Shown: positions 1,995 through 34,882 of the stretch, piece after piece
Layout of the letters: each line of letters starts with the position of its first letter
How positions within the stretch are numbered: the first letter of the stretch is position 1
Source: Naegleria gruberi
Lineage: Eukaryota
DNA: 64,000 nucleotides
Reading direction: 5' to 3' (one strand)
Assembly: GCA_000004985.1 (NCBI GenBank)
Contig: GG738851.1
Notes under the pieces: model-generated
The model's input: only the letters and a program-made list of their open reading frames with translations
What the model was told of the DNA's origin: nothing
The model's database searches: none
Translations under genes and position numbers: made by a program

Positions 1995-2112
1995 GACTAC
2001 AGCACCACAGGTTCCCAAGTTGTCTCCAACCTCAGTACTGATGTGGCTCGACGATGCTTAACTTCTCAAATCGGACGGGATGAGGTGCATGAATCGTGAT
2101 ATGGCCGTAGCC
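1995..2112 (-). rRNA. 5S ribosomal RNA gene, copy 1 (118 nt)
   Basis: Reverse complement reads GGCTACGGCCATATCACGATTCATGCACCTCATCCCGTCCGATTTGAGAAGTTAAGCATCGTCGAGCC...GGGAACCTGTGGTGCTGTAGTC. It carries the canonical eukaryotic 5S blocks (CATCCCGTCCGAT, GAAGTTAAGC, GTACT, GGTGCTGTAG), and the 5' and 3' ends pair as helix I. A T6 Pol III terminator follows the 3' end. Confidence 0.9.
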
Positions 2113-2642
2113 AATCAATACCTTATTTTGTGAAATATAAAACGATTTGACCCTCCTTTTCAATAGGATTTTAATGCTTCTAATCTCAATTCAAAGTCAA
2201 TCTGTCAACTCTATATCATCACTGGATCTGATTCATTACATTAGAGAAGAAAGTTTAGAGCTTCATTCTCCACTTCGTAGTGATTGGAACCACTTGCAAT
2301 TCTCTGAAGAATTACTGATAGTTCAATTTCGTAAATATCGAAAGATTTTTTTGGATGGTTCTCTTCATTATACGTGAATATCTACTCAAAGTTATGGTTG
2401 TAATATTGACCAATTGTTTCTAATTCAGATTCCTTTTCTGTAAGATTACTGTAGAAACTGTTGAAAAATGTTACATGAAAATCCGAAGAAAATCAACATT
2501 GTTTGCTATTCCTCCTCTTAATTGGAAGGTCTTGGAACGAATCCCTTTTCACTTGGAAAATAATTCCTTGCATTGACATGTTCAAAAACATTTAAAAGGT
2601 CAACCATGCCAAATTCTAAAGTTTAAAGATTGTTCAAGATCC

Positions 2643-4100
2643 ATGAATTTCTTTAAATTGACATGGATTACACGCAACCTTTTCATTGAAGAAAAAAACA
2701 TGTACTTCTCCAGATGTATCACCAACAAGTTGTTAGTTTCAGCTACAACTTTTTCTGCAACATGCATGGCCATTCTCATGGCTTTGATCATGTTATCATC
2801 AGTAACAACAGCCAATTCGCAAACCTATTCATTCAATAAGGATATGGACTACTTTTCATCGAATTATGTTGAAGCTTATCAAAAGTTTAAACAAGTTTGT
2901 GAAGCAACAGGTGGTTACAAGTACTCAGAGTATGAGCTTCCTTCCATTCTTGGTCTTCAAGGTGAAAAATTGTACATGTCTGCATGCTTCCATGAAGAAC
3001 GTGCCAACATGTTGAAGAATAGTGCTGAATCCAATGTTTTCCTTACCTTCTCAGGTGTACATGGACAAGAGGGATTTGCAGGAAGTCCAATTCAGATTGC
3101 CATGATAAAGAATGACACCAAGTATCAATTCAATCTCCCTGAAAATACCTATCCTATTCACATTCACATGTTAAATCCATATGGAGCCAGTTATGCAACA
3201 AAGGAAAATGAAAACAATGTCGACATGTTGAAGAATTTGAATGAACATTACATTGATGTACCTGGTTGGGAAATTTCAAAGAATGTTTTATTGGAACAAT
3301 TCATTGATAATATGAATATTTCATATATTCACTTGGAATCTGTTCAAGCACAAGCAGTCAACTACTTTAACACCCTATTGGCAAAAGTTGGTCTTCCAGC
3401 ATTCACACAATCATCAGTCCTTGGACAAATTCACAGAAAAATTGGAATTGCCTACGCAGGAACTACAGAAGAATGGACAGCCAAGCAAGTTAAAATCATT
3501 TTGAATCAACTCTTGAAAGGCTACTCCTCCGAATATACCAAGAGTAGAAAGGTTTTATATATTGACTTGCACACTGCTGTTGGTGAGTATGGAAATGTGT
3601 ATGCCATGTTCGATCCTGAATGGATTCCATTCGCTAAACAATACCTCCTCAAGAATGAATACATTCACGACAATTTATTTCCATTTCCGAATGGTAAATA
3701 TTTTGGACATTTCATTAAGGAGTTGGCCCTAATGAGTGGAAGCAAGGCCAATTTAACTATTGTTCCAACTGCTTGGGAAATTGGTACATTCCCACAAGAT
3801 GCCTATCAAAATTACTTTTTATTTCAATTGAATTGTAGATTCTATCAAAATATAACTGATAGAAATCCAAACTTTTGTCCATTTGTGAATTCCAAAGTTG
3901 GTGAATATTTCTATCCTCAAGATGACAATTGGAAGTCTTGGGCCTTTGGAAATTTGACAATTGCAATGAGAAGTTCAATGAATGGAATGAATCAATGGAT
4001 TTTGGAAGAAAAGTGGAGAGTTGCAAGTTTGGCAAATTGTAATATTATGCAATCATTCATGGTTATTGTAATGATTATTTGTTTGATTGTTTTATTGTAA
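2643..4100 (+). CDS. Secreted M14-like (DUF2817-like) zinc-carboxypeptidase-fold protein, probably GPI-anchored. The real start is probably the internal Met near 2766 that opens a signal peptide.
   Basis: Signal-peptide-like MAILMALIMLSSVTTANS and a C-terminal hydrophobic tail. SGVHGQEGFAG resembles the M14/AstE-AspA HxxE zinc-binding motif, and LNPYGASY resembles the M14 NPDG motif. A 230-bp relic of this gene sits in the inverted right arm. Confidence 0.5.
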   Translation: MNFFKLTWITRNLFIEEKNMYFSRCITNKLLVSATTFSATCMAILMALIMLSSVTTANSQTYSFNKDMDYFSSNYVEAYQKFKQVCEATGGYKYSEYELPSILGLQGEKLYMSACFHEERANMLKNSAESNVFLTFSGVHGQEGFAGSPIQIAMIKNDTKYQFNLPENTYPIHIHMLNPYGASYATKENENNVDMLKNLNEHYIDVPGWEISKNVLLEQFIDNMNISYIHLESVQAQAVNYFNTLLAKVGLPAFTQSSVLGQIHRKIGIAYAGTTEEWTAKQVKIILNQLLKGYSSEYTKSRKVLYIDLHTAVGEYGNVYAMFDPEWIPFAKQYLLKNEYIHDNLFPFPNGKYFGHFIKELALMSGSKANLTIVPTAWEIGTFPQDAYQNYFLFQLNCRFYQNITDRNPNFCPFVNSKVGEYFYPQDDNWKSWAFGNLTIAMRSSMNGMNQWILEEKWRVASLANCNIMQSFMVIVMIICLIVLL

Positions 4101-4736
4101 ACATTTTAATAAATAATTTGTTGAATTGGATTGATAATTGATATTATATTAATGGAACAATTGTGAAAGATTTGAGTGGGTCTGCAATGTTTTTAAATTA
4201 TTTGGTGGAGGAAAGAATTGGTGGAAAAATAGAGTAACAGAGGAAGTGTAAAGATACATCGATGTTTTAAGGTCAGAAGACATGATACTTTTACAATAGT
4301 TGGTAAATATTGGACATAATCTATTCTGACAAGTTCTATTTAAATAACTCTTCAAGTATTGAAATTACAGTTGATTCCTGGGTGTTACAAAATTTAGCTT
4401 GAATTAACGAGTCTGAAACTATAGGGTTCCATATCGCTATCCTGAACTGAGGGATAATTGAATACATAAAATTCTTCAATCTGAATTGCGATTAGGATCC
4501 TGTCAATGGTTGTTGTTCCAACTCCTCTTTCAATAATGATCATAATTCTGCTCGTTTAAATATGAGCACAAATCAACTAGAATCATGCGCGCAGAATTAA
4601 AAGTATAAATTTTAGGTTTAAATTTTATGGATTTGAAACACAACTCTAATTCCAAACACAAAAAAACAAATTCACAACTAGTTTTTGAATTTAATTCTAT
4701 CTGCACTAACAGTTTACAATCGTAATACAGTACAAT

Positions 4737-5848
4737 ATGAAATACGTCAATTTGGGTGAAAGTGGTTTAAAAGTTTCTCAACTTTGCTTGGGTTGCATGA
4801 GTTTTGGATCTTCCAAGTGGATTCCTTGGGTTTTGGAAGAAGAGGAATCATTGAGAATATTGAAGAAGGCATGGGATTTGGGCATCAACTTTTTCGACAC
4901 TGCCAATATTTACAGCAATGGAGAAAGTGAAAGAATTTTAGGCAAGTTCATTAAGGAATTCAACATTTCAAGAGAGGAAATTGTGGTTGCTACCAAAGTT
5001 TGTGGACCATTGGATCATTCTGGTGAACAAAAACTCATTATGAATAGTAATCAAGGTAAACCAAATACTATGGGTCTTTCCAGAAAGCACATTATGCATG
5101 CAGTTGAGGATTCATTGCAAAGATTGGGTCTTGATTGTAAGTTTTACTTTCTTCTTGTGATTTTAAATGAAAAATTTAAATAGACATTGATTTGTACATT
5201 ATCCATCGTTGGGATGAACAAACACCAATTGAAGAAACTATGGAAGCTCTCCATGATTTGGTTAAATCTGGAAAGGTCAGATACATTGGTGCCTCTACTA
5301 TGTTTGCTTGGCAATTTTCCAAAGCTCAACATTATGCTGAGAAGAAGGGATTGACTAAATTCATTTCCATGCAAAATCTGTACAATCTCATCTATAGAGA
5401 AGAGGAGAGAGAAATGAATCCATTGTGTGTTGATCAAGGTGTTTCACTCACACCTTGGGGACCTCTTTCTAATGGAATGTTAGCTCGTGCTCATGAATTT
5501 GTCAATGCTGAGGAGAAGGCAATTGAAACTACTGAAAATAATTCCAAGAGACAAAATACTGATATTGTTCAAACCATATTTAAGGGCAATTTGACTGAAG
5601 GTGATAAGGAAACTTTGAGAAAAGTTTCTGAAATTGCCAAGAAGAGAAACGTTTCTCCAGCTCAAATTGCACTTGCTTGGTTACTTTCCAAACCTGGAGT
5701 TGTAAGTCCAGTAATTGGTGCAACAAAGGCCATTAATGTTGAGCTCAATGTTCAAGCACTGGAAATTGAATTGACTGAAGAGGAGAAGAAGATTTTAGAA
5801 GGAGCCTACTCTGCAAAGGAAATTCAAGGAATGTTCAAATTAAATTAA
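4737..5848 (+). CDS. Aldo-keto reductase (aryl-alcohol dehydrogenase / Kv-beta-like AKR), join(4737..5136,5184..5848), 355 aa
   Basis: AKR hallmarks are present: GxxxLGxMSFG, DTANIY, and LGLD|YIDLYIIHRWD spanning a 47-nt GTAAGT...AAATAG intron. The stop of ORF 4737..5183 is the last 3 nt of the intron. A near-identical inverted copy lies at 32633..33744. Confidence 0.85.
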
Positions 5849-6236
5849 TGTGACACCAATTCTTGCTTAAAAGAATTTTTTAAGACATGTTTCTTAGTGT
5901 CATCAATAAATTTTCAACAAAGTTATTGGATTTAACACATTTAGATTATTAATTTGTGGCTATTCTTTTTAGTTTAATGGACGGGAAGCCTGTCAGGAAT
6001 ATAACGACAATCCCGCTACAGTCTTTGACTGTATGAACAGTGAAGGCAACGAAGACAGAATCTTGTTGGTTCAGGTTTTGTTTGAAGAAATTGTTAAGGT
6101 TGATAAAACCTCATATTTATTAAACTTTTGCCATGTTGAATTGCAGGATACAAATTTTGGTTTCTCATATTCTGATCAATTCGAAATTGAAACTTCATAT
6201 ATTTACAATTTACTGAATTATTTACAAGTTGCAATT

Positions 6237-6530
6237 TTACATCTTTTTCGATTTGGTAATCTTCTTAGTTGTGGTGTTTGATTGTTTAGCTCTCTTTTCA
6301 ATTGAATTTTTCGAAGATCTTTTAACTGAAATTTGTTTACCATTTAAATTTGCATGATGATAATCAATATTATTACGATGTCTTGTTCCACTTATAATAT
6401 TAGATGTATCAATATCAAATAATGGTAATCTTTTAGATAAATCAATTGGTTTAGATCTTGTCCATTCTGTTTTTGTTGGAATTCTATCTTCGGAAGATGA
6501 AGTATTTGATGAAGTATTTCTAGCTGGCAT
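6237..6530 (-). CDS. Small basic Ser/Thr/Lys-rich protein (97 aa), function unknown
   Basis: The ORF is conserved almost perfectly (1 aa change) in the inverted copy at 31964..32257, while the flanking DNA carries indels. A diverged paralogous fragment lies at 31546..31761. No recognisable domain. Confidence 0.35.
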   Translation of the reverse strand: MPARNTSSNTSSSEDRIPTKTEWTRSKPIDLSKRLPLFDIDTSNIISGTRHRNNIDYHHANLNGKQISVKRSSKNSIEKRAKQSNTTTKKITKSKKM

Positions 6531-7534
6531 TTTGCTCTTAGTTTTTGTTATTTAGTTATTTTGTTTTGTTGTGGAAATTTCATCATCCGAGCTAACAGTT
6601 ATCTATTTATTTCCATGATGATTTCCACTAATTTTGTGATTCCGATTTTTAGTGGATCTTCCACTCATCACAAGAATTTTTCTATTAATATTTTGATGAA
6701 AGGAAATTTAATGAAAATCAACAAACAAAAGAAAATAACAAGCAAAACTTCTAAATCAATCACAGAATTCTTTAGAAATGAGAAACAAACAATTCAAAAT
6801 GTGGTAATCTCCATAAAACTCAAAATTTTGTAAACCTAAGCAATCATTGTAAATAAAACCAAAATGTAAATATTCAGTAAAGTACACAGTTGAATTGTTT
6901 TGACCTATTTTCTTTATTTTCTTCTGAACTGCTGATTCAATTCGCATCCTGCATAAATTTCAAAGTAATTATATCAATTCTGTGTTTGCCCTCCTTCTCA
7001 ATTTTTTCCTGTGAGGGATCATCTGGTATGATTTCTAGCTCTGTTAAATAATAGAACAACTCCTTTTTCTCAAAAACAACAAACCTTTTCGGATGTTTCA
7101 CTTTGTGTCCATTAATTAATCCAACATACTCATAAAATGTAATAAAGAAATTGGTGATTAGTTCTGTAAGAAAAAAAGGGTGTGTCAGATCTGTGGTGGC
7201 AGAACCGTCAGAAATCGGCCCACAGACTTGCTCACAGCCCCGATCATTTGAAGTAGTGGTATTTCAAGTATGCCTGTTGGCTCTCACCTATGCTACACCT
7301 TCAACGAACACGGTTTGGTTGCAGTGTAATCCCTCAATTGGTTCTGCCAATGACAATGAATTGTCTGCAAACTCTAGATGGTTTGAAAATGTCTGATATG
7401 GTTGTGGTTGAGAGATAATTGATATTTAAAACTCCATCTCAGGATTGACATCTTCACATCCATTTTCTCATTTCTAAAATTCCTTTGCCCACTTGTTTAA
7501 GTCAAGTAAAGACAAAATACCAAAAAGATAAAAA

Positions 7535-7652
7535 GACTACAGCACCACAGGTTCCCAAGTTGTCTCCAACCTCAGTACTGATGTGGCTCGACGATGCTTA
7601 ACTTCTCAAATCGGACGGGATGAGGTGCATTCATCGTGATATGGCCGTAGCC
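7535..7652 (-). rRNA. 5S ribosomal RNA gene, copy 2 (118 nt)
   Basis: Same 5S sequence as copy 1 with microheterogeneity (GATGAATG instead of GATTCATG). Followed by a T5 terminator. The upstream ~40 nt resembles the flank of copy 1. Confidence 0.9.
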
Positions 7653-7813
7653 ATTCACTTTCTTAATTTTCGAAATACAAACCGGTTTGATCCTCAATCA
7701 AATATTTGTAATCAAATTCTTTGCACTTCAGTTGCAACATCTTAATAATTCTTTGTTTTTATAAAAATACAAGTATTGTTCATTAAATAATTGTTTAGGG
7801 AATAGTACAATAA

Positions 7814-9292
7814 TTAATTTCTGGAATAGTCAAAATCGTCAAAGTTTTGATTTTCTTCCTTATCAATAACTTCGGCAAATGAATCAACAGCACGTTCAGA
7901 TGTGAATTCTTCATCAAAGTATTTGATATCATCTCCATCTCTGAGTTGTGGTCTGAATGGAGGTTCCAATTGTCGTTGATATAATTGTTCCCAATCAATA
8001 TTTGAGAAGAATGGATGTGATTTGATTTCTTGAGCATCAGTTGGACCACCTCCCAAACGTTTGAATTCTTCTCTTTCCAAGAGACCTCTCAGTAAGGATT
8101 GTGCATCAGGTGGAATGAATTGTGGGAATTTGAGTGGAGCCTTCAAAATTAATTCGTACATTTCATTGATGTTTTCAGAGTAGAATGGTGGCAAACCAAC
8201 CATCATTTCGTATAATAAGATACCTAAACTCCACCAATCGACTGCCTTAGCGTGACCTTGTCCCTTGAGGATTTCTGGAGCCAAATATTCAGGAGTACTA
8301 AACATTTATAATTAGAAAAAATTTAAAAGATTGATTACATACCCACAGAATGTATAAGTTGGAGTAGCATTAGAAATGGATGTCTTGGCCAAACCAAAAT
8401 CTGTCAAGACAACATAACCATCTGAATCCAAAACAACATTTTCTGGTTTCAAATCTCTGTAAATAATATCATTCTTGTGCAAGTGTTCAATGGCCAAAAC
8501 AATTTGAGCAGCATAGAACTTGGCACGTTCAACGTCAAATTTGGTTTCTTCTTTCAAGTGGAAGAACAATTCACCACCTGGCAAGAATTGAAGAACTAGA
8601 TAGAGTTTTTCATCTGTTTGGAATGCATAGTACAATTTGACAATGAATGGATGGTTAATTTCTTGGAGAATTTGCTTTTCAGCCTTTCTATATATGGTGT
8701 AAAAGAGGTGTAAGGTCAATTAGAAAATTGTAAATATTTGGAAATATTAAAATACGTACGTGTGAGAAACCATGTTTTCTTTAACAATCATATCCTTACG
8801 CAAAACCTTCATGGCGAAAATTTCTGTAGTATTCTTTCTTCTAACTTTCATAACTTTTCCGAAACTGCCTCTACCAACGACGGCAATCAATTCAAAATCA
8901 TCCAAAGTGACCTTCTTTGCTTCAGCACTATTTCCACTTGAAACCAACAATGTACTACTCGAAGTATCATTTTTCATTTCCATCTTGGTTTGTTCTAAAC
9001 CCTTTTTATCATTCTTTGGCTTATAGTCAATAGCTCTTTGTAATTCATCCATCCACTTTTTATAATCAAGTTCAGATTCACAAATCAATTCATAGACACG
9101 TGAAAGATTTGGACCACTCAATTTCAATCCGAGTGACTTGTTTCCATCCTTTTCAACTTTGGCATTTGTCAGGACAATGACACCTGTTGGACGCTTATCT
9201 GTATTCTTTTTGTAATAGTACAAGTGTTTACCTCTCAATTCAAACCATCTACGACGGTGAGCAAGAGTATTAAATCCACCTCTCTTTCTCAT
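7814..9292 (-). CDS. AKT/PKB-like AGC Ser/Thr kinase with N-terminal PH domain, complement(join(7814..8297,8343..8687,8760..9292)), ~453 aa
   Basis: PH domain ([16 protein letters not shown]). Kinase motifs [19 protein letters not shown], and TFCG|TPEYLAPE split by a 45-nt intron. C-terminal hydrophobic motif FDDFDYS. Exon 1 and exon 2 are joined across a 71-nt intron (SHT|KAEKQILQ). The listing 'TTTTCAG' immediately upstream of the ATG suggests a possible 5' intron or unresolved first exon. Confidence 0.85.
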
Positions 9293-10330
9293 ATAACCTG
9301 AAAAATCTGGTTGTTCAAATGACTATATGATAGTTATTTTGTTATTATTAATTTGATGTATGTAGCAATCATTCACCATTAGTAGGATAAATTCATCAAT
9401 GGTATTACATTAATTATTATTATAATAATATTATTGTTCATAATTATTATTCAAATAGTAAAGTCAACCGATCAAATCACAAAAACCGAACCGTATTATC
9501 AAATAATAGCAAGAAACAAGAATTGGGTGTGATTATCATCATCATAGGGGAGAGAGAAGAAAACATTCAGTATTACAGTTGGTGTGTTTTTTGTTCAAAG
9601 TAAAATTTAAAAAAGAGCGCGGCAAGTTTTATACAGCAAGCAGGATAACAAGCAATTACGGTATATCATCATATCATTATCAAAAGAATCACATGAATGT
9701 CGCAACAATATATATATTATCAAACAATTGTCTCTGTGTTATTATACTACTATTATTGACTAGTAAAAATACGTACGTCCATCATTTTCTCTGTTTTTTT
9801 GTGTTGGGTGATTTGGTTATAATGTTACTTGTGTTGTTGCTGGTCGAGGAAGAAGTGAGGGAGCAATATTGTGAAATGCGCAGCAGTTTAGCTGTTGTTG
9901 ATTTTGGTTAACACAATGAACTCGTTTTTTTGCAATATATAAAATTGTGATAATTGACAGACAGTTGTTGCATGTCTTGCGGCAAAAGCAAATCAGGTCA
10001 CACAAAAGAGCTTGCCATCAACGTTGAATGACTACTACTATTGTAATGGAAATGTTGTTTGGTTACGAATCACTTGATCTTTGTAAACAGGTCGAAAATG
10101 GTCATCAGATGAAAACAAAACAACATTAAGTGTTCTGAAAGTTTTGATAAAAGTTTAGTTCTGATATTTTCAAAGCAATTCCAATAGAAATTGAACACTT
10201 TATCCAGTGCCATTTGCTCAATGGTACAAGGTTTGATGCAAGTGAGTGAACTACTTCCTTTGAACTTGGCAGAACATTTTTGAATATCCAAAATTTTTGA
10301 AAGGAAAGATCTGTAAATCAAGTTAAAAAA

Positions 10331-11146
10331 ATGGTGTTTCGTCTCTTCTCAAAGATTAGAACAGTTGATGCTAATGATGACCTTTCAACTGTTTCAGAAC
10401 AACACAAAGAAGAATCTAACGTTACAGTGGGGGTAGTTTCCGATACAGTTTCACCATTAAAAAATACGAAACATTCTCTCAAAATAGTAGACAAATTAAA
10501 TAGGGACGAATTATTAATTGTTGGATGTTTTCTAAATACTTCCGAGCTAGCAAATCTTGCTTCATGTAATCAACAATTACTGGAATTATTCTTTAATTTG
10601 ACAATTGACAAGGTCAATTTAATAGCAAAGAGGAAAAAAAAATTCTCAAGTATGAACATGGATTCAAGAATTGTTTCAATCAAGGATGTGTACCAAGAGA
10701 ATGATGAATTATTCTCAACAACTCAAACAATAATTTGGAAACCACTTGTTCTACATTATTTTCCAAGTTATTCGAAATCTCTGAATGTGAAAAATTGGAT
10801 GCACGTATTAAGGAGAAGATTCACACACCTTCAGATACACATGCCAAGATCCAAAAACCAAAACCAAATTCAAATAATTGACAGTAGTGATAAATACAAA
10901 AGGGAATTCGTTGAAGGTTGCGAATGGGAATACGAATGTCCACTCAAAATCACCTCAATGACTTACATTTCCGAGGAAAAGGTATTTTGCAATGTCTGTA
11001 AGGAGAATATTTACAAAGTTCACAATCAAACCGATTTGAAGTATCACACCGAACAAGGACATTGTGTCATTCTAACTGAAAAAAAACATGTTAAAATTGG
11101 AAAGACATATAATCCTGATTATCATGAACTTCCTGCTGTTCGTTAA
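10331..11146 (+). CDS. F-box-like protein with C-terminal Cys/His-rich zinc-finger-like region (271 aa)
   Basis: F-box-like LNRDELLIVGCFLNTSELANLASCNQQLLELF. C-terminal CxWEYECP...CNVCKEN...HxxxxxxH...HC cluster. Confidence 0.5.
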   Translation: MVFRLFSKIRTVDANDDLSTVSEQHKEESNVTVGVVSDTVSPLKNTKHSLKIVDKLNRDELLIVGCFLNTSELANLASCNQQLLELFFNLTIDKVNLIAKRKKKFSSMNMDSRIVSIKDVYQENDELFSTTQTIIWKPLVLHYFPSYSKSLNVKNWMHVLRRRFTHLQIHMPRSKNQNQIQIIDSSDKYKREFVEGCEWEYECPLKITSMTYISEEKVFCNVCKENIYKVHNQTDLKYHTEQGHCVILTEKKHVKIGKTYNPDYHELPAVR

Positions 11147-11553
11147 CTCTCTGTACAATTGGACTCGAATTTTCTTGTTATTGTAACAATGGATGATAAA
11201 ACTCAAGACACATCTCCAATGATGTCTCTCCAAACCAGTATTCCTGTTAATGAAATTCATCATTAGTGGAAACATATTTTTTTCCTTCTCTCTTAACCCT
11301 TATTTAATAATAAGTTCAATGCTTAAAAAAATGGATGTAGAATACGTCCTGTGTGCTGCACAAAGTTATCGAAATGGATGCAAAGATAGAGACAATTATG
11401 GAAGACATTAAAACATTGAAATATCCGAAAGAAATGTGATTGTGATTGTTTGGGTTGCAAGGATTTTTGAATGATTCTGAGAATACTTGCATAACAATTA
11501 TATTCCTTAATTAATTTAAAATAAATTATTTTTGAATAAAGAGAGACTGAGAT

Positions 11554-15144: not shown

Positions 15145-15216
15145 CACAAAGAAACACAGCCTGAGGCTGTAAACTCTCCAATTCACGTCACGTGTGGAAG
15201 GCTGTGTTTCTTTGTG
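15145..15216. repeat. 17-bp perfect inverted repeat (CACAAAGAAACACAGCC ... GGCTGTGTTTCTTTGTG) with a 38-nt loop containing nested palindromes
   Basis: Read directly from the sequence. The loop contains CAGCCTGAGGCTG and CACGTCACGTG. It sits in the 2.4-kb divergent intergenic region between the RWP-RK and CUE genes. Confidence 0.6.
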
Positions 15217-17002: not shown

Positions 17003-17122
17003 ATTAATATAACATTTAACTTGTACATATTCTATTATTTATTTCCGAAAAGTCATGATTAAAACTTCCAAAAATGGGTTTATACCATCTCAGGATTGCT
17101 TACAAAAATAACAAATAAGGAA

Positions 17123-18961: not shown

Positions 18962-19163
18962 TTTTTTTTCTTTGGTTGACCAGAATATTTACTCACACAA
19001 TGAAATGGTTCAACCTTGAAAATACACTTGTTGTAATGTTTGAAAAATTGGGATTTCAGATTCAAATATTTTCGAATGATAATAAATAAAAATTATCCCA
19101 AGCTCACATTCTAGATTCATAATTATGGAAAAAGGAAGGATTTGCAGTTTTAATAAATTTGAA

Positions 19164-20324: not shown

Positions 20325-20382
20325 AATTCGATGTAAGGAGAAAATATCGGAATAGAGTTTTCAAATATTATTGAAACAACAT

Positions 20383-23300: not shown

Positions 23301-23436
23301 AGCCTGATCGAATACCATGTGCAAAAAGTATAAACAGGAAAAAGTATTGGAAAAAGTAAAACCACTTCTTCCTTCTCGAAATGCCTTGTTCTTCTCCGGC
23401 CATTCTAATTGTATATCTTTTCTTATAAAAAAACAA
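20383..23436 (-). CDS. GPI ethanolamine-phosphate transferase (PIG-O/PIG-G/Mcd4-type). Likely start MAGEEQG near 23403.
   Basis: N-terminal alkaline-phosphatase/sulfatase-like phosphodiesterase domain (FTDGLPVKY...LLILSSDHGTDDVSNGYVLHGY) followed by about 12 transmembrane helices. Confidence 0.75.
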   Translation of the reverse strand: MFFYKKRYTIRMAGEEQGISRRKKWFYFFQYFFLFILFAHGIRSGFFTLLNRSQYKSGATNTMCSQATPESVREKLIRTGHKSSETDALISTKSLNVFTSSEFSNLKKEHHLCDYPSELQFTKVIWLFTDGLPVKYSKKTFDHFKDHMVLYTIDVPGPKYSHAIYTSYMTGQLPTNYQGNPIEGDSLVKSIQRSPDMGPLTYVGPEWSFLAIHGNKHYDKLFKRIELKEEPLDQPHDQGYRFFFANEDARKFYRETLDTIKGEGGSLFAHSAIFDHINHGVFRHDPTNLDYLTYLSDRIASDINPLKDWIDANPDYLLILSSDHGTDDVSNGYVLHGYSRDGNEGYVMLYNPRLKPYDERLDIVDVCPTVAKYLKGVDIPADNIGVSRAYFGDDEESLKYKSYVLKESLVQLTDTTTRRGTDLLRSASSILNLLKMEASDMSFSEKFKSIRDFNTELSKLNVEMKQKLYQLMDTPVFWVAFYVACTLVMVVIGLYRFNFHAIHLLAEKYVSKALYLLCILIPLYFGSFVNVLFCWDTWKGVVRSGGPFFIWQGFLTIVLFFVIYQCTIYFMKTRTEKDKGEADGFSLIGWKLFIFCTIDMTFFALFHLFRKQWKWGMEHVLPLQYLLLIYVVFDFCGYNLFSSIVSVALFIVRKIRRTPVPATKNMNKNTFHFIYCTAMMLLLFLFEFTSVRETAPQEQKALYVQYYTIAGFHIYYLGFIIMAFLYFVFVLLFNPKRLDRLIIPSLLYAFALMRDTPFGRVVTLLQNVQYFYLLVPAYILINKYCCQVKKKDKGFNSSGSSPQFEDDETKHHFFDILQLTISLFFMNHFMYGFHIGKEERLDVDAHPMAGAVGMKSHQQHPNFNAFQMGYERWHMILLSAIYFWSVLHREKDDGLTKTEKDIKDADRYYITDIILNTFTLLMFNAHVFVNLMLCYITMDHAFQETIVYLVVISISATAFTFFNMVTRYSVFVIEFVLSKVPNGKFKTFVQQVLLSQNEPESDDILPITTSDKPIKDV

Positions 23437-23921
23437 AGCAACAAAAATTGTTTATCCGTGTGTGTATGGATCGTGTTGTGTCTTTGCTTCTGTTCAACCA
23501 AACAACACTCTTCAAAACTCTCTAGGTGATGATCGAACAATCAGAAATGGTGCAATAGACAACAAATAGATGACGTGTTGTTGCAATTTTTTTAAAGCTT
23601 TTCTTTGCTCTCTAACAGTGATGATAAGAAAACAATGACACACTGATGAGGCAGCAAATGCCCGATGATGGTTCCAATACGTTTTTAGAGTTGAGAGGAC
23701 AGTTCTGGTAAGACATTTGCAATAGCAGAAATACATTAAAAAAGGCGCCTTGTTGCAAAGAATGAAAATGGATTGCAATATTAGAAGAAGTGATGGACTT
23801 TTTAAAGTTCGTTTTTGTGCAAAAAGACCGTCATCAAAGGATTAAGGTTTTAAGAGTTTGAGATTTTCAGTTTTTTATTTACACAGTATTTACAATGCAA
23901 TGATAGTAATTTGATTTAAAA

Positions 23922-26264: not shown

Positions 26265-27059
26265 TTTCTGTTAGTCTTTCAATTAGTTTTTTTTCGAATT
26301 GTTAGTTGAAAGCAAACGAAACCGTCTGTTTTATTGGCCTTACCGTTTGTTCAAAAGATTGCGTTGCAATCCAACTTCCCAAGAAAGCTTACTGGTTTCG
26401 TAATCCAAATGGATTTCTTTTGTAAAGTATTGACGTATCTCCACTGTGCATAAACTGGGTTTGGTTTCAGGATTACATTATCGAATCTTTTTGGAAAAGT
26501 TTTGCATCCACAGTGAAAGTCAACATTTTGTCGATGAATGGCATGTAGATGACAACAGGGTGATAGTATTATTTCATTTTTGAATTGTTTTGTAAATAAA
26601 TCATGTAAAAAATTGATTTTGTAAAACTGGTCTTGTCTGCAACTATTTGAAGTAAGGTTCAACCATTGTAATATTTTCAAGTTGACCAACCAATCGGCTT
26701 ACAATATTCGAGGTGGGTACATGTATCCTGAAGACCAATTGCCTTTCTCTATGGCTTGGTACCTCTTAGCCAACTCAATTCTCTGTATTCCAACACCTTA
26801 AATTAAATATTAATAATTTTGATCCTCAACAATGTTTAATAAATGATGTTCATCAATAAAACGTATTCAATGAATTTTAATGGTTCATCACAACAAACAA
26901 AATGCTGTTCACCTCACTTCTGAGGTCCGACCTCGATGTTATGCTGATATCTTTGCAACGATTGAAAAAGGACCAAATTTAAAAACCTCAAAAAACTACG
27001 AAAAAAAATAGCTCGAAGCTGTTTCTCTCATTTGAATTAGTATATAGAATAAACCGAAA

Positions 27060-28291
27060 ATGGGCTTTAACTTGAAGATTGTTGGTGGTACCAGTAATTT
27101 GGAATTGGCGTATGTAGTTTTTAATGTTGAAAGAGTGATGATAATAATTTGTTGTTCGGGTTGATTTTTGTGATATTGGTGTCGATGATATACAAAATTT
27201 ATTTTTCGTCATCCTTTTGTTGATGAATATTTGTGATGGTGAATAGTAAGAAGGTTGCTCAATTCTTACAAATCGATCTTACTGAAACCAAGGTTTACAA
27301 GTTTGCTGATAGTGAAATTGGTGTTCAAATTATGGAAAATGTCAGAGGTGTAAGTATTGAAGATGTATGAGGATTGTATTAATTGTTATTATTATTGGAA
27401 TGGATTAGAGTGGTATGTATTGACTAAAATTCAATGAATTATTTATCGGAATGTAAAGATGTTTATGTTATTCAATCAACATGTACTCCTGTCAATGATA
27501 ACTTTATGGAATTGTGTCTTATTGTCGATGCTTTGAAGAGAGCCAGTTGTAATAGAATTACTGCTGTTGTTCCATATTACGGATATGCTAGACAAGACAG
27601 AAAGACCAAGCCAAGAGTCCCAATTTCTGCTGCCCTCGTCTCTAGATTGTTAGAATCATCAGGTGTTGATCGTGTCTTGTCTGTTGACTTGCATTGTGGT
27701 CAAATTCAAGGTTTCTTCAACATTCCAGTTGACAATCTCCATGCCAAACCAGTTTTGGTCGATCAATTCTATCAAAGAATCGTTTTAGGTGAATCATTGA
27801 AGACTGTTTCCGATTATCAAGGACTTGTTGTCGTTTCACCAGATGCTGGTGGTGCAGAACGTGCTGATAACTTTAGAACTGCATTGAATGAACAAGATCC
27901 ATCTCTCCAAGCTTCTATGGCTGTTATGAATAAGAAGAGAGTTGAAGCCAATAAGGTTTCCACAATGGAATTGGTCGGTAATGTTGAAGGTAAACACTGT
28001 GTCATTGTTGACGACATGATTGACACTGCTGGTACTTTGGCTATGTGTGCTCAAATTTTGAAGGACAATGGTGCTAAGAGAGTCTTTGCTTGTGCCACCC
28101 ATGGTTTATTCAATGGAGCTGGTGTCAAGAAGATGGAAGAAAGTGTCATTGAAAAGGTTATTGTCACAAACACTGTCCCACTCCCAGCTGAAAAGCAACA
28201 CGAAAAGATTATTCAAGTCTGTGTCAGCAAATTGGTTGGTGAAGCTATTAGACGTGTTCACAATGAAGAATCTGTCTCAAGCTTGTTCTAA
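27060..28291 (+). CDS. Ribose-phosphate pyrophosphokinase (PRPP synthetase), join(27060..27109,27247..27347,27459..28291), 327 aa
   Basis: Exon 1 MGFNLKIVGGTSNLELA. Exon 2 KKVAQFL...MENVR. Exon 3 DVYVIQSTCTPVNDNFMEL...HGLFNGAG...AIRRVHNEESVSSLF. Collinear with PRPS along its whole length. Introns begin GTATGT and GTGTAAGT. Confidence 0.85.
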
Positions 28292-28370
28292 ACTGAATGT
28301 GAACTCTCCTGAATAGTATAAATGAAAAATCTTAAAAATAATTAATTTACTTTTTGGAATTGGAATATAA

Positions 28371-30222
28371 TTACAGATTTGGACTACCAACAAGGAGGAA
28401 ATTATCACGAGTCTTTCTCTCAAACTTGTGATTGAATTCATTAATGTGGTGAGTTTTCTTTTGTGGAGTGTGAGGCATGCTTAAATGTTGACCTGCACTA
28501 GCTCCAGATCCAGAAAAATTCAAAGATTGAGTCACATCTCCCAATTGACTAGATTTAAAGAAACTCTTTGGAGGTGTAAATGCTCGTTGTTCTTTGACAC
28601 CCATAATTCTTCCTAATCCTCTCGTTGACAAGGGTTTGTAGACTCTTCCTACCGAGGCAGGAGAGGTTAAATCCTTTGGTTTTCTGTCATCTTTAATATT
28701 CGGTCAATCAAGGTGATATTGTCAAAATTTAACTTACACTTAACCTTAATAGGTGTAATGGGAGAATCAAATTCTCTTCTATTTTCCTCATTTTCTGATC
28801 TTGGTGGCGTGGATTCAACACTCTTGAAAGATCTTGCTGATGAAGTTCCTGAATGTAGTCTCTTTGGAGTGAGGTTTGTTGGTGTGGTTGTTGACTGATA
28901 GAATACTCGATCCTCATTAAGCTTTTTACTAATTTCTAAACTGAGTTGATTCCTTGTTTTGGGTGGTGTTTTAAACATGTCTGCCGATCTAGGAATTGTT
29001 TTTTCACAAGATTGACTGATAGAAACTACCTGTAATGGGAATAGTCTCTCTGTTGCAGTACTTGCTACAGAGAGTGGTAATATTTGAGTTCTATCCTCTC
29101 CTTCTCTCCACATTTTGGCTTGTTTTTCCTTTAAAAATTGCTGTTGAATTCCAATAACCATACCAGGTCTACATACTCTGAGCCATCCAATGACTTCAGT
29201 TGCTGTGAATTGGTAATGTTTCATCATGTAGAGGGCAATCATTGTTCCAGTTCTTCCAAGACCTGCCTTACAATGGACTGCAATGATAGACTCCTCTTCA
29301 GCTATTTGAAGGAATTTCCTGATATGATCCTCACTTGGTGTACTTCCATCTGGGAAGTATAAATCGAAATGATTAATTCCATTACTGATGAATTTCTTTC
29401 GATCATAGAGAGCTCTGTTCAATCTAACAATTGCTGACACTCTCCACTGTTTGAAAGGAGAAATATAATCCTCTGGAGTTAAATGTACATATCCATCACT
29501 TGAAATTCTTCTACTAGATGGTGATGAAAAGGCCAAAAATTTACCGGGCACTACCCAGTTAATGTCTCCATTTTCGACCTTTTCAAGTCTAAGGTATTCC
29601 TCAGCGTCAAATGAATTGTATTTGAAAAATCCAAGGGATATTCCTTTAACAAGACCTTTACAACAATCCAAAATTGACAAGCTGAATGTTGATAAATTTT
29701 GAGAGGCATCCCTGAAAGGAATGAGAGGAGGATAAACAAAATTGAAAGGTTTACATGCATCTTCTGCTGTCTTATCCTGAGAAATGACCATGTAGGCAGC
29801 TGCCAAGAATGCAGCATTTGCTCTCTTTTGACCATCAAAACTTGTCACTAATACTATTCTCTTATTTGTTGTCTGTAACATAATGTATTGAATCAATGTA
29901 AATTAACTCAGAACGCAAGCAAACATACCCTTAACAAGTTATCAATATGTCTACATATTTCTACAGTATATCCTAAATTTACAGGACCAAAATCATGACA
30001 GAATGGTTCATAAACATATCTCTCGTCAAGCATGACAAAAGTTGATTGAGGATTGTCATAGGCCGATGGAGTCCTCCTCAGAGAAACCCAATATAAACGA
30101 TCCTCAATTAGACAAATTGCATCCTTCAGATCTCCTCCCATCTTTTTGGGGCTATTAGAAAAGTTGGTATTGCTCTCTCGCTTTGTGCTACTGTTGCTGG
30201 GCGAGATGGGCAGTATTGTCAT
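28371..30222 (-). CDS. CDC14-family dual-specificity phosphatase, complement(join(28371..28690,28738..29872,29929..30222)), 582 aa
   Basis: N-terminal domain YVYEPFCHDFGPVNLGYTV. Catalytic HCKAGLGRTGTMIALYMMKHYQFTATEVIGWLRVCRPGMVIGIQQQFL. Introns of 56 and 47 nt (GTATGT...TTACAG and GTAAGT...TTAAAG). The exon frames are cross-checked against three ORF-track entries. Confidence 0.85.
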
Positions 30223-30985
30223 ACTATTTGTTTCTATTAAATTGAGAAGGAAAATTGATGATTAATAATAAGTAGAGAAAAGGTGATCGGATCCGATATA
30301 TAGAATGCTATATTAATGATGATACAAACCTGAATTAATACTCTCCTTCACTGAAATGGATGATATCGATAAATTCATCATCCTATTAGAAAGAGTCGAT
30401 GAAGCCGAGGTTGCTCTACTCGGTGTTGAAGAATTCATATTCAATCTCTTTAGATACTGATTCTCTTACTCCCTTAAAAATCTCGGAACAATAAGGTAAA
30501 AATCAAAGAAACTCTGCGTTCGTTCGCCTCTTGATAAACGACTAGTTTTTTTTGAGTTTGTTCAATAGAGAGAACATAGTCTAAGGATGCATTGTTGAGA
30601 GAAGTTTTGAAGCGTAATTTTACTTTAAAAAAATTACGATCGGGGAGAGATGAAATAAATTCTTTCAAGACTTGTCCTTCTTAAGAAAAGTCAATGTGTT
30701 GCGAAGAATTTTACATACGGTTGGGTTTCTGGTGGTATACATCATGATGTGTATTAAGCATTCGAAATATTTTCAAATATTATGCTCTTTGTTGAGATTG
30801 TTGGATGTTCCTAAATCAAAAAGGTGTAAAGGAGAAGTAACTTGTTTATAATTTGGGACATGCGAATACTTGCAATATTGTTTCTCATAAATGATTTGGA
30901 AACGAAAAAGGATCAAACTGGTTTATAGTGAAAGAGGAAAAAGAGGTTTAAATCGTTTTATATTTCGCAAATTAAGAATTTGCAT

Positions 30986-31033
30986 GGCTACGGCCATATC
31001 ACGATTCATGCACCTCATCCCGTCCGATTTGAG
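30986..31033 (+). pseudogene. Truncated 5S rRNA gene (first 48 nt only)
   Basis: GGCTACGGCCATATCACGATTCATGCACCTCATCCCGTCCGATTTGAG, then unrelated sequence. It retains the same upstream flank (AATCGTTTTATATTTCGCAAATTAAG) as the intact copies and lacks the internal box A/box C promoter region. Confidence 0.6.
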
Positions 31034-31963
31034 CAGAAAAATGATGCCCAATCCAACAAGGTCATCTTTGAATTGACTTGTTGGAGATTCTTCGTTGTTC
31101 TATTATTTAACAGAGCGAGAAATCATACCAGATGAATCCTCACAGGAAAAAATTGAGAAGGAGGGCAACAACCACTTTGATTATTGACCAAATTCTGGCT
31201 ACTCATCCTCTTGAGTGAAAGGAGGAGAGTTTCCAGATTCACATTTCAGTCTGCATGATCTCTGAAATGTCCTTCAAGGTAAGTATAAAGAAAGAAAAGA
31301 GTGTAAATTCAAACAAATCTTAAAAACTTTTCAAGATGTATGATTTTTTGAAACCTGAATTATGGTCATTGTTTGTTTTTTTATGATTTGAATTCTTTGA
31401 AATAGTTGAACATGAAGCAAACACAGAATTGATATAATTACTTTGAAATTTATGTAGGATAATTATTTTACATTATTGAATATTTACATTTTGGTTTTAT
31501 TTACAATGATTGCCTAGGTTTTCAAAATTTTGAGTTTTATGGAGATTACCACTTTTTGAATAGTTTGTTTCTCATTTCTAAAGTGTTATGTGATTGAGAT
31601 TTAGAAGTTTTACTTGTTTCATTTCCAACAGAATTCAATGTTTTGTAATCAATTAAATTTCTTCTTCTTGTTCCACCAATAATATTATCCAGAGAAATTT
31701 CGGAATTAAATTGTGAAGTATTATTGGAGGAATTATACATATTTCTTCTTGTTGAGACCATTTTCTAATTGTTGTTTTGTTATTTTCTTTTGTTGTTGAT
31801 TTTCATTAAATTTCCTTTCATCAAAATATTGATAGAAAAATTCAACTTCTTGTGATGAGTGGAAAATCCACCAAAAATCGGAATCACAAAATTAGTGGAA
31901 ATCATCATGGAAATAAATAGATCAACTATCCACAACAAAACAAAATAACTAAATAAGAGCAAA

Positions 31964-32257
31964 ATGCCAGCTAGAAATACTTCATCAAATACTTCATCTT
32001 CCGAAGATAGAATTCCAACAAAAACAGAATGGACAAGATCTAAACCAATTGATTTATCTAAAAGATTACCATTATTTGATATTGATACTTCAAATATTAT
32101 AAGTGGAACAAGACATCGTAATAATATTGATTATCATCATGCAAATTTAAATGGTAAACAAATTTCAGTGAAAAGATCTTCGAAAAATTCAATTGAAAAG
32201 AGAGCTAAACAATCAACCACCACAAATAAGAAGATTACCAAATCGAAAAAGATGTAA
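31964..32257 (+). CDS. Small basic protein (97 aa), inverted duplicate of 6237..6530
   Basis: Identical to the left-arm protein at 96 of 97 residues. A diverged partial paralog lies head-to-head at 31546..31761 (-), with NIIGGTRRRNLIDYKTL against NIISGTRHRNNIDYHHANL. Confidence 0.35.
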   Translation: MPARNTSSNTSSSEDRIPTKTEWTRSKPIDLSKRLPLFDIDTSNIISGTRHRNNIDYHHANLNGKQISVKRSSKNSIEKRAKQSTTTNKKITKSKKM

Positions 32258-32632
32258 AATTGCAACTTGTAAATAATTCAGTAAATTGTAAATAATTGTA
32301 AATAAAACAACTTTGAAATATAGATGAAGTTTCAATTTAGAATTGATCAGAATATGAGAAACCAAAATTTGTATCCTGCAATTCAACATGACAAATGTTC
32401 AATAAATATGAGGTTAATCAACCTTTTCAATTTCTTCAAACAAAACCTGAACCAACAAGATTCTGTCTTCGTTGCCTTCACTGTTCATACAGTCAAAGAC
32501 TGTAGCGGGATTGTCGTCATATTCCTGACAGGCTTCCCGTCTATTAAACTAAAAAGAATATTCACAAATTAATAATCGTTGTTTTTATTTTGTTGCCAAA
32601 GGAATATTTAACAGATTGTTGAGAAAGTCAAA

Positions 32633-33744
32633 TTAATTTAATTTGAACATTCCTTGAATTTCCTTTGCAGAGTAAGCTCCTTCTAATATCTTCTTCTCCT
32701 CTTCAGTCAATTTAATTTCCAATGCTTGAACATTGAGCTCAACATTAATGGCCTTTGTTGCACCAATTACTGGACTTACAACTCCAGGTTTGGAAAGTAA
32801 CCAAGCAAGTGCAATTTGAGCTGGAGAAACGTTTCTCTTCTTGGCAATTTCAGAAACTTTTCTCAAAGTTTCCTTATCACCTTCAGTCAAATTGCCCTTA
32901 AATATGGTTTGAACAATGTCAGTATTTTGTCTCTTGGAATTATTTTCATTAGTTTCAATTGCCTTCTCCTCAGCATTGACAAATTCATGAGCACGAGCTA
33001 ACATTCCATTAGAAAGAGGTCCCCAAGGTGTGAGTGAAACACCTTGATCAACACACAATGGATTCATTTCTCTCTCCTCTTCTCTATAGATGAGATTATA
33101 CAGATTTTGCATGGAAATAAATTTAGTCAATCCCTTCTTCTCAGCATAATGTTGAGCTTTGGCAAATTGCCAAGCAAACATAGTAGAGGCACCAATGTAT
33201 CTGACCTTTCCAGATTTAACCAAATCATGGAGAGCTTCCATGGTTTCTTCAATTGGTGTTTGTTCATCCCAACGATGGATAATGTACAAATCAATGTCTA
33301 TTTAAATTTTTCATTTCAAATCACAAGAAGAAAGTAAAACTTACAATCAAGACCTAATCTTTGTAATGAATCCTCAACTGCATGCATAATGTGCTTTCTG
33401 GAGAGACCCATAGTATTTGGTTTACCTTGATTACTATTCATAATGAGTTTTTGTTCACCAGAATGATCCAATGGTCCACAAACTTTGGTAGCAACCACAA
33501 TTTCCTCTCTTGAAATGTTGAATTCCTTAATGAACTTGCCTAAAATTCTTTCACTTTCTCCATTGCTGTAAATATTGGCAGTATCGAAAAAGTTAATACC
33601 CAAATCCCATGCCTTCTTCAATATTCTCAATGATTCCTCTTCTTCCAAAACCCAAGGAATCCACTTGGAAGATCCAAAACTCATGCAACCCAAGCAAAGT
33701 TGAGAAACCTTTAAACCACTTTCACCCAAATTGACGTATTTCAT
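32633..33744 (-). CDS. Aldo-keto reductase, inverted duplicate: complement(join(32633..33297,33345..33744))
   Basis: Three amino-acid differences against the 4737..5848 copy (S/A, T/N, E/K). The same 47-nt intron carries a TTA->TGA point change, which explains why ORF 33316..33795 stops early. The ORF-track N-terminus MNLILS... is upstream read-through. The real start is MKYVNLG. Confidence 0.8.
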
Positions 33745-34448
33745 ATTGTATTGATTGCGATTGAAAACTGTTAGTGCAGATAGAATTAAATTCAAAAACT
33801 AGTTGTGAATTTGTTTTTTTGTGTTTGGAATTAGAGTTTTGTTTCAAAGCCATGAAATTTAAACCTAAAATTTATACTTTTAATTCTGCGCGCATGATTC
33901 AAGTTGATTTGTGCTCATATTTAAACGAGCAGAATTATGATCATTAGTGAAAGAGGAGGTGGAACAACAACCATTGATAGGATCCTAATCGCAATTTAGA
34001 TTGAAGAATGTTATGAGTTAAAGATAGAGGGAAAAAGACTCCTTATATTTACTGGATGGAATTGTTTCAAATTTTTCATTCCGTCCTTATATTCATATTG
34101 GTATCCATTGAGACTAATAGTAAACCTCATATAATTTAAACCTTCCTTTGAAATATTTGCATCGTGTATGTTCTTGTTGGCCAATAAAATTGTTTTTGTG
34201 TTCCTAATTTTTAGCTAGACCAATTCAAGCTACTTAGGAGTTTACTGTAATTTCAATACTTGAAGCATTATTAAAATATAATTTTTCAGAATAGATAGCA
34301 CCCAATATTTACCAACTATTGTAAAAGTATCATATCTTCTGACCTTAAAACATCGATGTATCTTTACACTCCATATTTACAAAGCTAATTCAAAAAACAA
34401 TTCAAATATTCACAATCGTTTCTTTATAGACTTACGGCAAATGCACAT

Positions 34449-34730
34449 TTACAAATAAGAATATAATATCATGAATTGATATTTGGTGTCATTCTTAATC
34501 ATGGCAATCTGAATTGGACTTCCTGCAAATTCCTCTCGTCCATGTTCACCTGAGAAGATAAGGAAAACATTGAATTCAGCACTATTCTTCAACATGTTGG
34601 CACGTTCTTCATGGAAGCATACAGACATGTACAATTTTTCACCTTGAAGAAGACCAAGAATGGAAGGAAGCTCATACTCTGAGTACTTGTAACCACCTGA
34701 TCTAGAGTTGACAGGGTGATTGAGGGTCAA
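34449..34730 (-). pseudogene. Relic (~230 bp) of the M14-like gene
   Basis: Encodes GGYKYSEYELPSILGL..GEKLYMS.CFHEERANMLKNSAE.NVFL.FSG.HG.E.FAGSPIQIAMIKNDTKYQF, homologous to residues ~90-165 of ORF 2643..4100. The rest of that gene is absent from this arm. Confidence 0.6.
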
Positions 34731-34764
34731 ATCGTTTTATATTTCGCAAATTAAGGTATTGAAT

Positions 34765-34882
34765 GGCTACGGCCATATCACGATGAATGCACCTCATCCC
34801 GTCCGATTTGAGAAGTTAAGCACCGTAGAGCCACATCAGTACTGAGGTTGGAGACAACTTGGGAACCTGTGGTGCTGTAGTC
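34765..34882 (+). rRNA. 5S ribosomal RNA gene, copy 3 (118 nt)
   Basis: GGCTACGGCCATATCACGATGAATGCACCTCATCCCGTCCGATTTGAGAAGTTAAGCACCGTAGAGCCACATCAGTACTGAGGTTGGAGACAACTTGGGAACCTGTGGTGCTGTAGTC, then T5. Its upstream flank matches copy 1 in inverted orientation. Confidence 0.9.

Follow-up and report, generated by a model that had tools for sequence, protein, structure and literature searches.

How does a block of genes come to stand twice on one scaffold, in opposite orientations, with a 5S ribosomal RNA (rRNA) gene at each of its ends? This question is raised by a 64,000-nucleotide stretch of the Naegleria gruberi genome (contig GG738851.1 of assembly GCA_000004985.1; hereafter the window), which is part of scaffold_7 of strain NEG-M as given in a single 2010 Sanger assembly and has a GC content of 33.8%. 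Here, an N. gruberi gene cassette of ~6 kb with 5S rRNA genes at both ends is present as two copies that lie 23 kb apart in opposite orientation. Below, we describe the two copies and their 5S ends, weigh how the duplication may have arisen, and follow what each copy has lost since.

An inverted duplication with 5S rRNA units at all four ends

A first-pass annotation made from the sequence had proposed that the cassette occurs twice, inverted and 23 kb apart. Self-alignment, when run, revealed just such an arrangement: positions 1985-7700 (the left arm) match positions 34891-30937 (the right arm) as a colinear reverse complement, both by self-BLAST of the window and by a repeat search. The main block of this match is 2.3 kb long and 92.6% identical including gaps, which places the arms among inverted low-copy repeats (i.e., at least 1 kb and at least 90% identity in opposite orientation). 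Seven further colinear blocks accompany it, and identity reaches 98% over 1127 nt within the aldo-keto reductase (AKR) gene that both arms carry (all blocks are listed in Table 1). The arms enclose a unique spacer in which we recovered the RWP-RK, PRPS and CDC14 genes named by the first-pass annotation, along with a PH-domain kinase, CUE and Kelch/F-box genes.

The earlier observation that the breakpoints coincide with 5S genes held as well, since 5S units are found at all four arm ends. We refer to them as a (outer left), b (inner left), c (outer right) and d (inner right). Three of them (a, b and c) pass the Rfam RF00001 gathering score of 38 bits over the full model, while 5S d fails with 22 bits (30986-31089) and is a truncated pseudogene. 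The cmscan alignment presents 5S d as a full-length degenerate copy, and we rejected this candidate: its 57-nt tail scores 3 versus 4.2 ± 1.7 for shuffled sequence, and because the tail does no better than shuffles, the full-length 22-bit alignment is forced. In either arm, both 5S genes point the same way: (-,-) in the left arm and (+,+) in the right. A motif with a TATA-like core, GAGGGTCAAATCGTTTTATATTTCGCAAATTAAG, precedes each of the four copies and agrees with a published description of a TATA box at 5S genes of N. gruberi (PMC3369914). In Table S1 of the same study, three entries on scaffold_7 (545993, 551533 and 578765) are spaced as the intact genes a, b and c are here, with a corresponding to 545993 (PMC3369914); the window accordingly spans about scaffold_7:544,001-608,000.

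Homology that stops at 5S units suggests probable 5S-guided copying

The N. gruberi genome is ~41 Mb in size. At ~170 nt each, 279 5S units make up ~0.1% of a genome of this size, and because they cover so little of it we rejected chance as the reason for 5S at both breakpoints; chance landing of two breakpoints on 5S units is very unlikely. The copy number used here, 279 5S genes in N. gruberi, is a published count (PMC3369914).

The junctions themselves indicate how the 5S units were involved. At the outer ends, inter-arm homology stops at the T-run of the 5S genes, and the junction is clean. At the inner ends, the upstream motifs of b and d are identical at only 34 of 43 positions, compared with 40 of 43 for a and c, which is near the arm-wide level; this contrast is suggestive of an inner breakpoint within the 5S unit. 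Because inter-arm homology stops at or inside 5S units, we favor a mechanism in which 5S homology was used, and we consider that the locus probably arose as an inverted segmental duplication by 5S-homology-guided recombination.

In this mechanism, an ancestral cassette of ~6 kb would have lain between two same-sense 5S genes, with the order (on the left + strand) 5S, DUF2817, AKR, CHZ1, CHZ2, U1, segment X, 5S. It would then have been copied between sites 23 kb apart, with 5S units serving as the homology. Two routes could accomplish this. In the first, ectopic gap repair, a break in a pre-existing 5S gene would be repaired as its two ends pair with the 5S genes on either side of the donor, one each. 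In the second, a circle would be excised between direct 5S repeats and then reintegrated at another 5S gene. By either route, the orientation of the target 5S would set the inverted orientation of the new copy, and the two copies would subsequently have drifted ~6% apart at neutral positions while complementary parts of them decayed. Both routes predict same-sense flanking 5S genes, an orientation set by the target and the absence of target-site duplications, and all three were seen; inspection of the junction sequences revealed no target-site duplication at either arm. We thus infer a recombination event that used a 5S gene already present at one of the two sites. The first-pass annotation had suggested ectopic recombination between dispersed 5S copies. 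The use of 5S copies is favored by where the homology ends, but simple crossing-over is not a sufficient explanation, because crossing-over between inverted repeats inverts the intervening DNA rather than duplicating it, and an event of the copy-in type is required.

There is a precedent for these routes. For the wtf genes of Schizosaccharomyces, which are flanked by 5S ribosomal DNA, two models have been proposed: the cassette enters an existing 5S gene by ectopic gene conversion, or a circle excised between direct 5S repeats integrates. Both are backed by syntenic sites with a lone 5S gene (PMC9562144). As at wtf loci, each N. gruberi arm has flanking 5S genes of the same sense and homology that ends at or inside 5S. 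The two systems also share protein-coding cassettes between dispersed 5S genes, copies at several 5S sites and the mechanisms proposed for them. They differ in cargo, which in N. gruberi consists of housekeeping-type genes and a U1-like RNA rather than a selfish meiotic driver, and in that two copies are seen here, the host is a heterolobosean and not a fungus, and synteny support exists only for wtf (PMC9562144).

Several observations weigh against 5S-homology-guided recombination. First, the contrast between 34/43 and 40/43 involves few sites. Second, the variable sites of the 5S genes form a mosaic: at +21/22, TC is common to a and d and GA to b and c, and the upstream motif groups a with c. 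Such a symmetrical pattern gives no direction from donor to recipient, which is unsurprising in a family of 279 members. Third, a 21-nt relic (30908-30928, +) that resembles the upstream motif of 5S b (7675-7695) lies 35 nt outside the motif of 5S d. Because this relic sits just outside the right arm, the inner right junction must have been reworked in more than one event. Fourth, comparison with Naegleria lovaniensis did not reveal the ancestral state that the two routes call for. The convergent CDC14-PRPS pair of the window (27059-30243) is conserved in this species (PYSW02000020.1:217721-239686), and synteny breaks off on both sides of it, on the CDC14 side at the CDC14 promoter, the very position of the right-arm edge in N. 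gruberi. The 10 kb upstream of N. lovaniensis CDC14 contain no 5S, U1 or cassette gene, and with only the CDC14-PRPS pair syntenic, a lone 5S gene was not seen at either site in this outgroup. (A DDE_3 transposase gene lies ~5 kb upstream in the N. lovaniensis CDC14 locus.) The two AKR loci and the DUF2817 locus of N. lovaniensis are unrelated to the window: apart from the gene in question they have no sequence in common with it, and 5S genes are absent from them. The linkage of DUF2817, AKR and 5S may therefore be confined to the N. gruberi lineage.

Finally, the 5S genes may mark the breakpoints as fragile sites and not through their homology. In this main rival, which we regard as possible but unlikely, 5S genes, being heavily transcribed by RNA polymerase III, would stall replication forks and break, and the cassette would have been copied by homology-independent replication (template switching or microhomology-primed break-induced replication). 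The untidy inner right junction, with its truncated 5S, 57-nt filler and displaced upstream-motif relic, is what such copying could leave behind, and microhomology is found at deletions within the arms (e.g., TTGC at the deletion of the U1-like gene, described below). Polymerase III genes are also clustered at the right edge, where a tRNA-Asp(GTC) gene (36369-36439, -) lies 1.5 kb from the outer right 5S and thus from the arm. However, the outer junction is clean, and whole 5S units in matching orientation at both ends of both arms are the prediction of homologous pairing, whereas fragile sites would need four independent coincidences to produce them.

Uniform neutral divergence suggests one event that is not very recent

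To place the duplication in time, we compared divergence between the arms by region. Synonymous divergence (dS) is 0.068 and non-synonymous divergence (dN) 0.0036 in AKR (14 synonymous and 3 non-synonymous changes), and the corresponding values are 0.05 and 0.009 in CHZ1, the 97-aa open reading frame that is also present in both arms. Noncoding columns of the main block differ by 6.0% (51/846), and the other blocks by 2-11%. Because neutral divergence is uniform at ~6% (noncoding, AKR dS and CHZ1 dS alike), a single duplication event that is not very recent is the simplest reading.

This differs from the recent origin assumed by the first-pass annotation, which rested on ~99% identity of the AKR proteins, three amino acid changes and an identical 47-nt intron. 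The protein comparison was accurate, with 3 amino acid and 17 nucleotide differences between the spliced 354-aa copies; the introns, in contrast, match at 46 of 47 positions. Protein identity of 99% is explained by purifying selection (AKR dN/dS is ~0.05), which maintains AKR and CHZ1 in both arms, and it does not bear out a recent date.

The same figures bear on the idea that the duplication is much older than 6% divergence implies and that repeated gene conversion has homogenized the arms (i.e., concerted evolution). Gene conversion is common between inverted repeats of this size, and the longest identical tracts (195, 179 and 148 bp) all fall within AKR. In addition, an independent 1010-bp contig from the European Nucleotide Archive (ENA) encodes an AKR that mixes left-type and right-type residues. 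This environmental fragment, nearly identical to the window copies, has left-type T250, right-type A179 and K329, and two changes of its own, which suggests strain variation or exchange between copies. We nevertheless consider concerted evolution improbable as the explanation for the age of the arms: synonymous (0.068 and 0.05) and noncoding divergence are about equal, the 17 differences in AKR are distributed evenly, leaving no long tract that looks converted, and a dN/dS of ~0.05 fully explains the higher identity of AKR. Neither the spread of AKR differences nor divergence by region gave any sign of recent gene conversion between the arms.

The two arms have decayed reciprocally

The first-pass annotation described one copy, the right, as decaying. 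Comparison of the arms demonstrates that decay is instead reciprocal. On the right, the DUF2817 (M14-like) gene was lost in two deletions (one exchanging 752 bp for 22 bp, the other 1112 bp for 101 bp), so that most of the gene is indeed missing, with a relic of 228 bp and not 230 bp. A further loss of 541 bp from the right arm took the 3' 68 nt of 5S d together with the 473-bp segment X and left 57 bp in their place; the reported loss from this 5S gene was thus genuine, though it had been put at 70 nt (the gene is cut after nt 51). The left arm, for its part, is missing the 5' 118 nt of the U1-like gene together with 130 nt upstream, and the N-terminal half of CHZ2.

Two stretches found only on the right had previously been taken as gains. 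The first, reported as a gain of ~260 bp, is a 248-bp stretch (31169-31416) that together with the adjoining 53 nt present in both arms makes up the complete U1-like gene. Because both arms share these 3' 53 nt as well as the sequence upstream of the promoter, the 248 bp are best read as a left-arm deletion of the 5' 118 nt of the gene and a 130-nt promoter, and the TTGC microhomology lies at this deletion junction in the left arm. The second is a 158-bp stretch (31619-31776) that encodes the N-terminal half of CHZ2, including its CHZ motif. It too is best read as lost from the left arm, because the paralogy of CHZ1 and CHZ2 (76% in DNA) is far older than the ~6% divergence of the arms. A local inverted mini-duplication on the right, as first suggested, does not account for this pair, whose ~76% identity is confined to the 41-nt motif and which predates the arms.

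As a result, DUF2817, segment X and two intact 5S genes are retained only on the left, the U1-like gene and CHZ2 only on the right, and AKR and CHZ1 in both arms. This outcome resembles duplication-degeneration-complementation in that each arm has lost different members of the ancestral gene set. It appears to differ in that whole genes of a multigene segment were lost here and not subfunctions of a single gene.

The content of the arms also speaks to whether the cassette could be a mobile element that inserted twice, either a composite transposon or a retroelement with 5S-carrying terminal repeats. Cassandra retrotransposons of plants carry 5S sequences in their long terminal repeats (LTRs), and the left arm resembles them in having direct repeats of 166-173 nt with 5S sequence, spaced 5.5 kb apart, around an internal region. 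Such an element is nonetheless very improbable, and we rejected it: target-site duplications are absent from both arms, the repeats do not exceed an ordinary genomic 5S unit (-43 to ~+128) and show no LTR structure beyond it, and between them lie host genes under purifying selection, none of which encodes a transposase or reverse transcriptase. Equally hard to credit is an artefact of the 2010 Sanger assembly (i.e., a misplaced haplotype or paralogue), since the arms are ~6% and nine indels apart, far beyond the expected allelic difference, each has its own content (DUF2817 in the left arm, U1 in the right), unique sequence surrounds both junction regions, and the two AKR copies are separately annotated genes on one scaffold of 693,645 bp.

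Table 1 Features of the inverted duplication in the N. gruberi window. L and R denote left-arm and right-arm coordinates of homologous blocks.
Feature	Position	Strand	Description
Left arm	1985..7700		5.7 kb; window self-BLAST and repeat search
Right arm	30937..34891		3.95 kb; window self-BLAST and repeat search
Unique spacer	7701..30936		23.2 kb; PH-domain kinase, RWP-RK, CUE, F-box, Kelch, PRPS, CDC14; from open reading frames and Pfam, with CDC14 and PRPS orthologues
Homologous block	L1985-2155 = R34891-34722		95%
Homologous block	L2908-3132 = R34699-34472		95%
Homologous block	L4245-4379 = R34370-34236		89%
Main homologous block	L4465-6741 = R34015-31777		92.6% including gaps
Homologous block	L6737-6884 = R31618-31469		
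Homologous block	L6946-6989 = R31460-31417		
Homologous block	L6986-7060 = R31168-31094		96%
Homologous block	L7602-7695 = R31036-30943		
5S gene a, outer left	1994-2112	-	Rfam RF00001 100.3 bits; upstream promoter-like 43-nt motif reaching 2155
5S gene b, inner left	7534-7652	-	Rfam 105.4 bits; upstream motif reaching 7695
5S gene c, outer right	34765-34883	+	Rfam 103 bits; upstream motif 34722-34764
Truncated 5S gene d, inner right	30986-31036	+	nt 1-51 only; upstream motif 30943-30985
DUF2817 (M14-like) gene	2700..4100	+	466 aa; PF10994 1.2e-38, profile 1-336 of 341; intact on left only
DUF2817 relic	34472..34699	-	228 bp, codons 70-144; 3-nt insertion and 8 substitutions; weak Pfam match
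AKR, left	4737..5848	+	354 aa; 47-nt intron 5137-5183; PF00248; splice junction read from sequence
AKR, right	32633..33744	-	354 aa; intron 33298-33344; identical to EFC48513/D2V4G8
CHZ1, 97-aa basic open reading frame, left	6237..6530	-	PF09649 28.5 bits (cut-off 23.3)
CHZ1, 97-aa open reading frame, right	31964..32257	+	intact
CHZ2, 71-aa second CHZ-motif open reading frame	31546..31761	-	PF09649 21.4 bits, below the 23.3 cut-off; intact on right only
CHZ2 remnant, left	6737..6809	+	C-terminal 24 codons; 158 bp encoding the N-terminal half gone
U1 snRNA-like gene	31116..31286	-	Rfam RF00003 40.7 bits, E 1e-8, model 1-166; complete on right only
U1-like relic, left	6986..7038	+	3' 53 nt only; 5' part and promoter deleted
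Segment X	7061..7533		left arm only; 473 bp, 41-44% GC

Protein-coding genes of the arms

The DUF2817 protein of the left arm is identical to N. gruberi EFC48378/D2V4F8, encoded on the same scaffold as the AKR copies, and matches its Pfam family with 133.9 bits against a cut-off of 23. It carries an HxxE motif (in the sequence SGVHGQEG), a signal-like N-terminal segment and a hydrophobic C-terminal tail, and the Pfam clan assignment of the family links it to the M14 zinc peptidase fold. Its N. lovaniensis homologue is 48% identical, and a search of PDB sequences with the protein found no solved relative.

The left AKR was assigned to PF00248 through both of its exons (89 bits for exon 1 and 152 bits for exon 2), while the right copy was placed by its difference of 3 aa from the left. 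The left AKR corresponds to EFC48379/D2V4F9, whose gene model drops 16 aa. More broadly, three published N. gruberi AKR models (338-341 aa) lack an in-frame stretch of 14-16 aa that is kept by paralogues of 354-355 aa; in the left arm, the stretch removed is VNAEEKAIETTENNSK, within positions 5460-5510 of the window. This stretch has the appearance of a 48-nt intron predicted in error, but it may be a real one. Further N. gruberi paralogues are found on other scaffolds, D2VXT7 and D2VV78 for AKR and D2VXD8 for DUF2817.

CHZ1 and CHZ2 stand head-to-head in the right arm. Their proteins align with a score of 82 versus 33 ± 6 for shuffles; the PF09649 histone-chaperone motif that unites them is short (34 positions), and a chaperone function is putative.

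Two features near the right arm were noted in passing. Directly to its right lies a two-unit ubiquitin-like gene (35053-35511, -), whose units are 76% identical in DNA and differ from canonical ubiquitin. Farther on, positions 40308-40426 form a 119-nt imperfect palindrome (79% identical to its own reverse complement) that is unrelated to the arms.

A candidate U1 small nuclear RNA gene and segment X

Positions 31116-31286 (-) in the right arm are a candidate for the N. gruberi U1 small nuclear RNA (snRNA) gene, one that scores under standard thresholds. Its 40.7 bits are below the RF00003 gathering threshold of 69.5, and we hence label it U1-like and not a confirmed family member. A 2008 screen for spliceosomal RNAs applied a threshold of 55.74 bits and included an extra, unfiltered U1 search on the N. 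gruberi genome (PMC2396436); the U1-like score is also under that threshold. Its features are nonetheless those of U1. The 5' end is exactly AUACUUACCU, a loop reads GAUCAUGCAG and an Sm-like run reads AAUUUUUU, and the minimum-energy fold consists of a four-way junction followed by a terminal hairpin, with a z-score of -2.6. The single-stranded 5' AUACUUACCU, the junction, a stem-loop I loop of GAUCA type, the Sm site and the 3' hairpin are thus all present.

Segment X, whose GC content is raised (41-44%), yielded no credible Rfam match at E values up to 10, no Pfam match and no match to Escherichia coli, and neither strand gave a folding signal. It may be a degenerate rRNA fragment: its minus strand contains GTGTAGCATAGGTGAGAG and TGAAATACCACTAC, 14 nt apart, which resemble conserved motifs of large-subunit rRNA and are colinear with them, and we treat this as a lead only.

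5S-bracketed intervals across the genome

If 5S units guided the duplication, then gene-sized intervals between neighboring 5S genes are the substrate on which such events would act. We analyzed the positions in Table S1 of the published 5S survey (PMC3369914) and found that 38 of 162 gaps between neighboring 5S genes are 6 kb or less, versus ~6.5 expected at random, an excess of about sixfold. Intervals of gene size with 5S at both ends are hence a frequent substrate in the N. gruberi genome, in which 5S genes are dispersed but locally paired. Scaffold_7 has 14 copies, including one at scaffold_7:543593, ~400 bp left of the start of the window (Table S1, PMC3369914). Through this copy, the MetAP2 gene at 280-1673 is 5S-bracketed as well.

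We also scanned metagenomes for 5S units. A first pattern, of N. gruberi type, had no match. A second pattern retrieved 13 environmental contigs of 1-7 kb, each with one Naegleria-like 5S gene; one contig is 97% identical in its 5S and the rest 76-85%, one of these through a match of only 32 nt at the contig end. None of the 13 contigs contains any other arm sequence. Single 5S genes on these contigs are consistent with a dispersed, not tandem, arrangement of 5S in related organisms.

Discussion

With 5S as the guide, the event described here is a further and fairly ordinary example of repeat-guided segmental duplication, a known process. Rearrangements at Ty, delta and tRNA sequences in yeast and inverted low-copy repeats in humans likewise present two inverted copies of more than 1 kb and more than 90% identity around unique DNA, with dispersed repeats at the boundaries, and permit in principle an inversion of the spacer by non-allelic homologous recombination. 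The N. gruberi locus is unlike these repeat-mediated duplications in that its boundary repeat is a 5S gene unit of functional type and not a transposon. A different likeness is offered by the linkages of 5S with U1 or spliced-leader genes reported in some crustaceans, fishes and euglenozoans. Here too, a U1-like gene and a 5S unit are neighbors, convergent in orientation and with 26 nt between the gene and the 5S 3' end; unlike in those linkages, the copies are single and dispersed among protein-coding genes, and there is no tandem 5S-snRNA unit. Our literature search found no specific report of segmental duplications or 5S-linked rearrangements in N. gruberi.

The arms may also have consequences for the DNA between them. 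Perfect inter-arm tracts of up to 195 bp are probably enough for homologous recombination across the spacer, which makes the inverted arms a possible source of inversion polymorphism over ten genes; the orientation on view is the assembled one.

The locus thus offers a well-resolved case of duplication guided by a dispersed RNA gene, combined with clear complementary gene loss, and it flags a candidate U1 gene. It also invites a broader and quite speculative proposal, which we put forward with considerable doubt: that the ~280 dispersed 5S genes of N. gruberi could act as genome-wide homology handles that repeatedly copy the intervals they bracket, with protein and small-RNA genes alike, to other 5S sites. 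The sixfold excess of short 5S-bracketed intervals makes this idea testable genome-wide. If it is true, the duplication described here would be a single instance of the process, which would draw on the 38 5S pairs no more than 6 kb apart as its substrate. A wtf-like spread through 5S would then have ordinary host genes as its cargo and would influence the paralogue families of a free-living excavate, and 5S-guided duplication would extend from the selfish genes of fission yeast to ordinary genes in a distant eukaryotic lineage.

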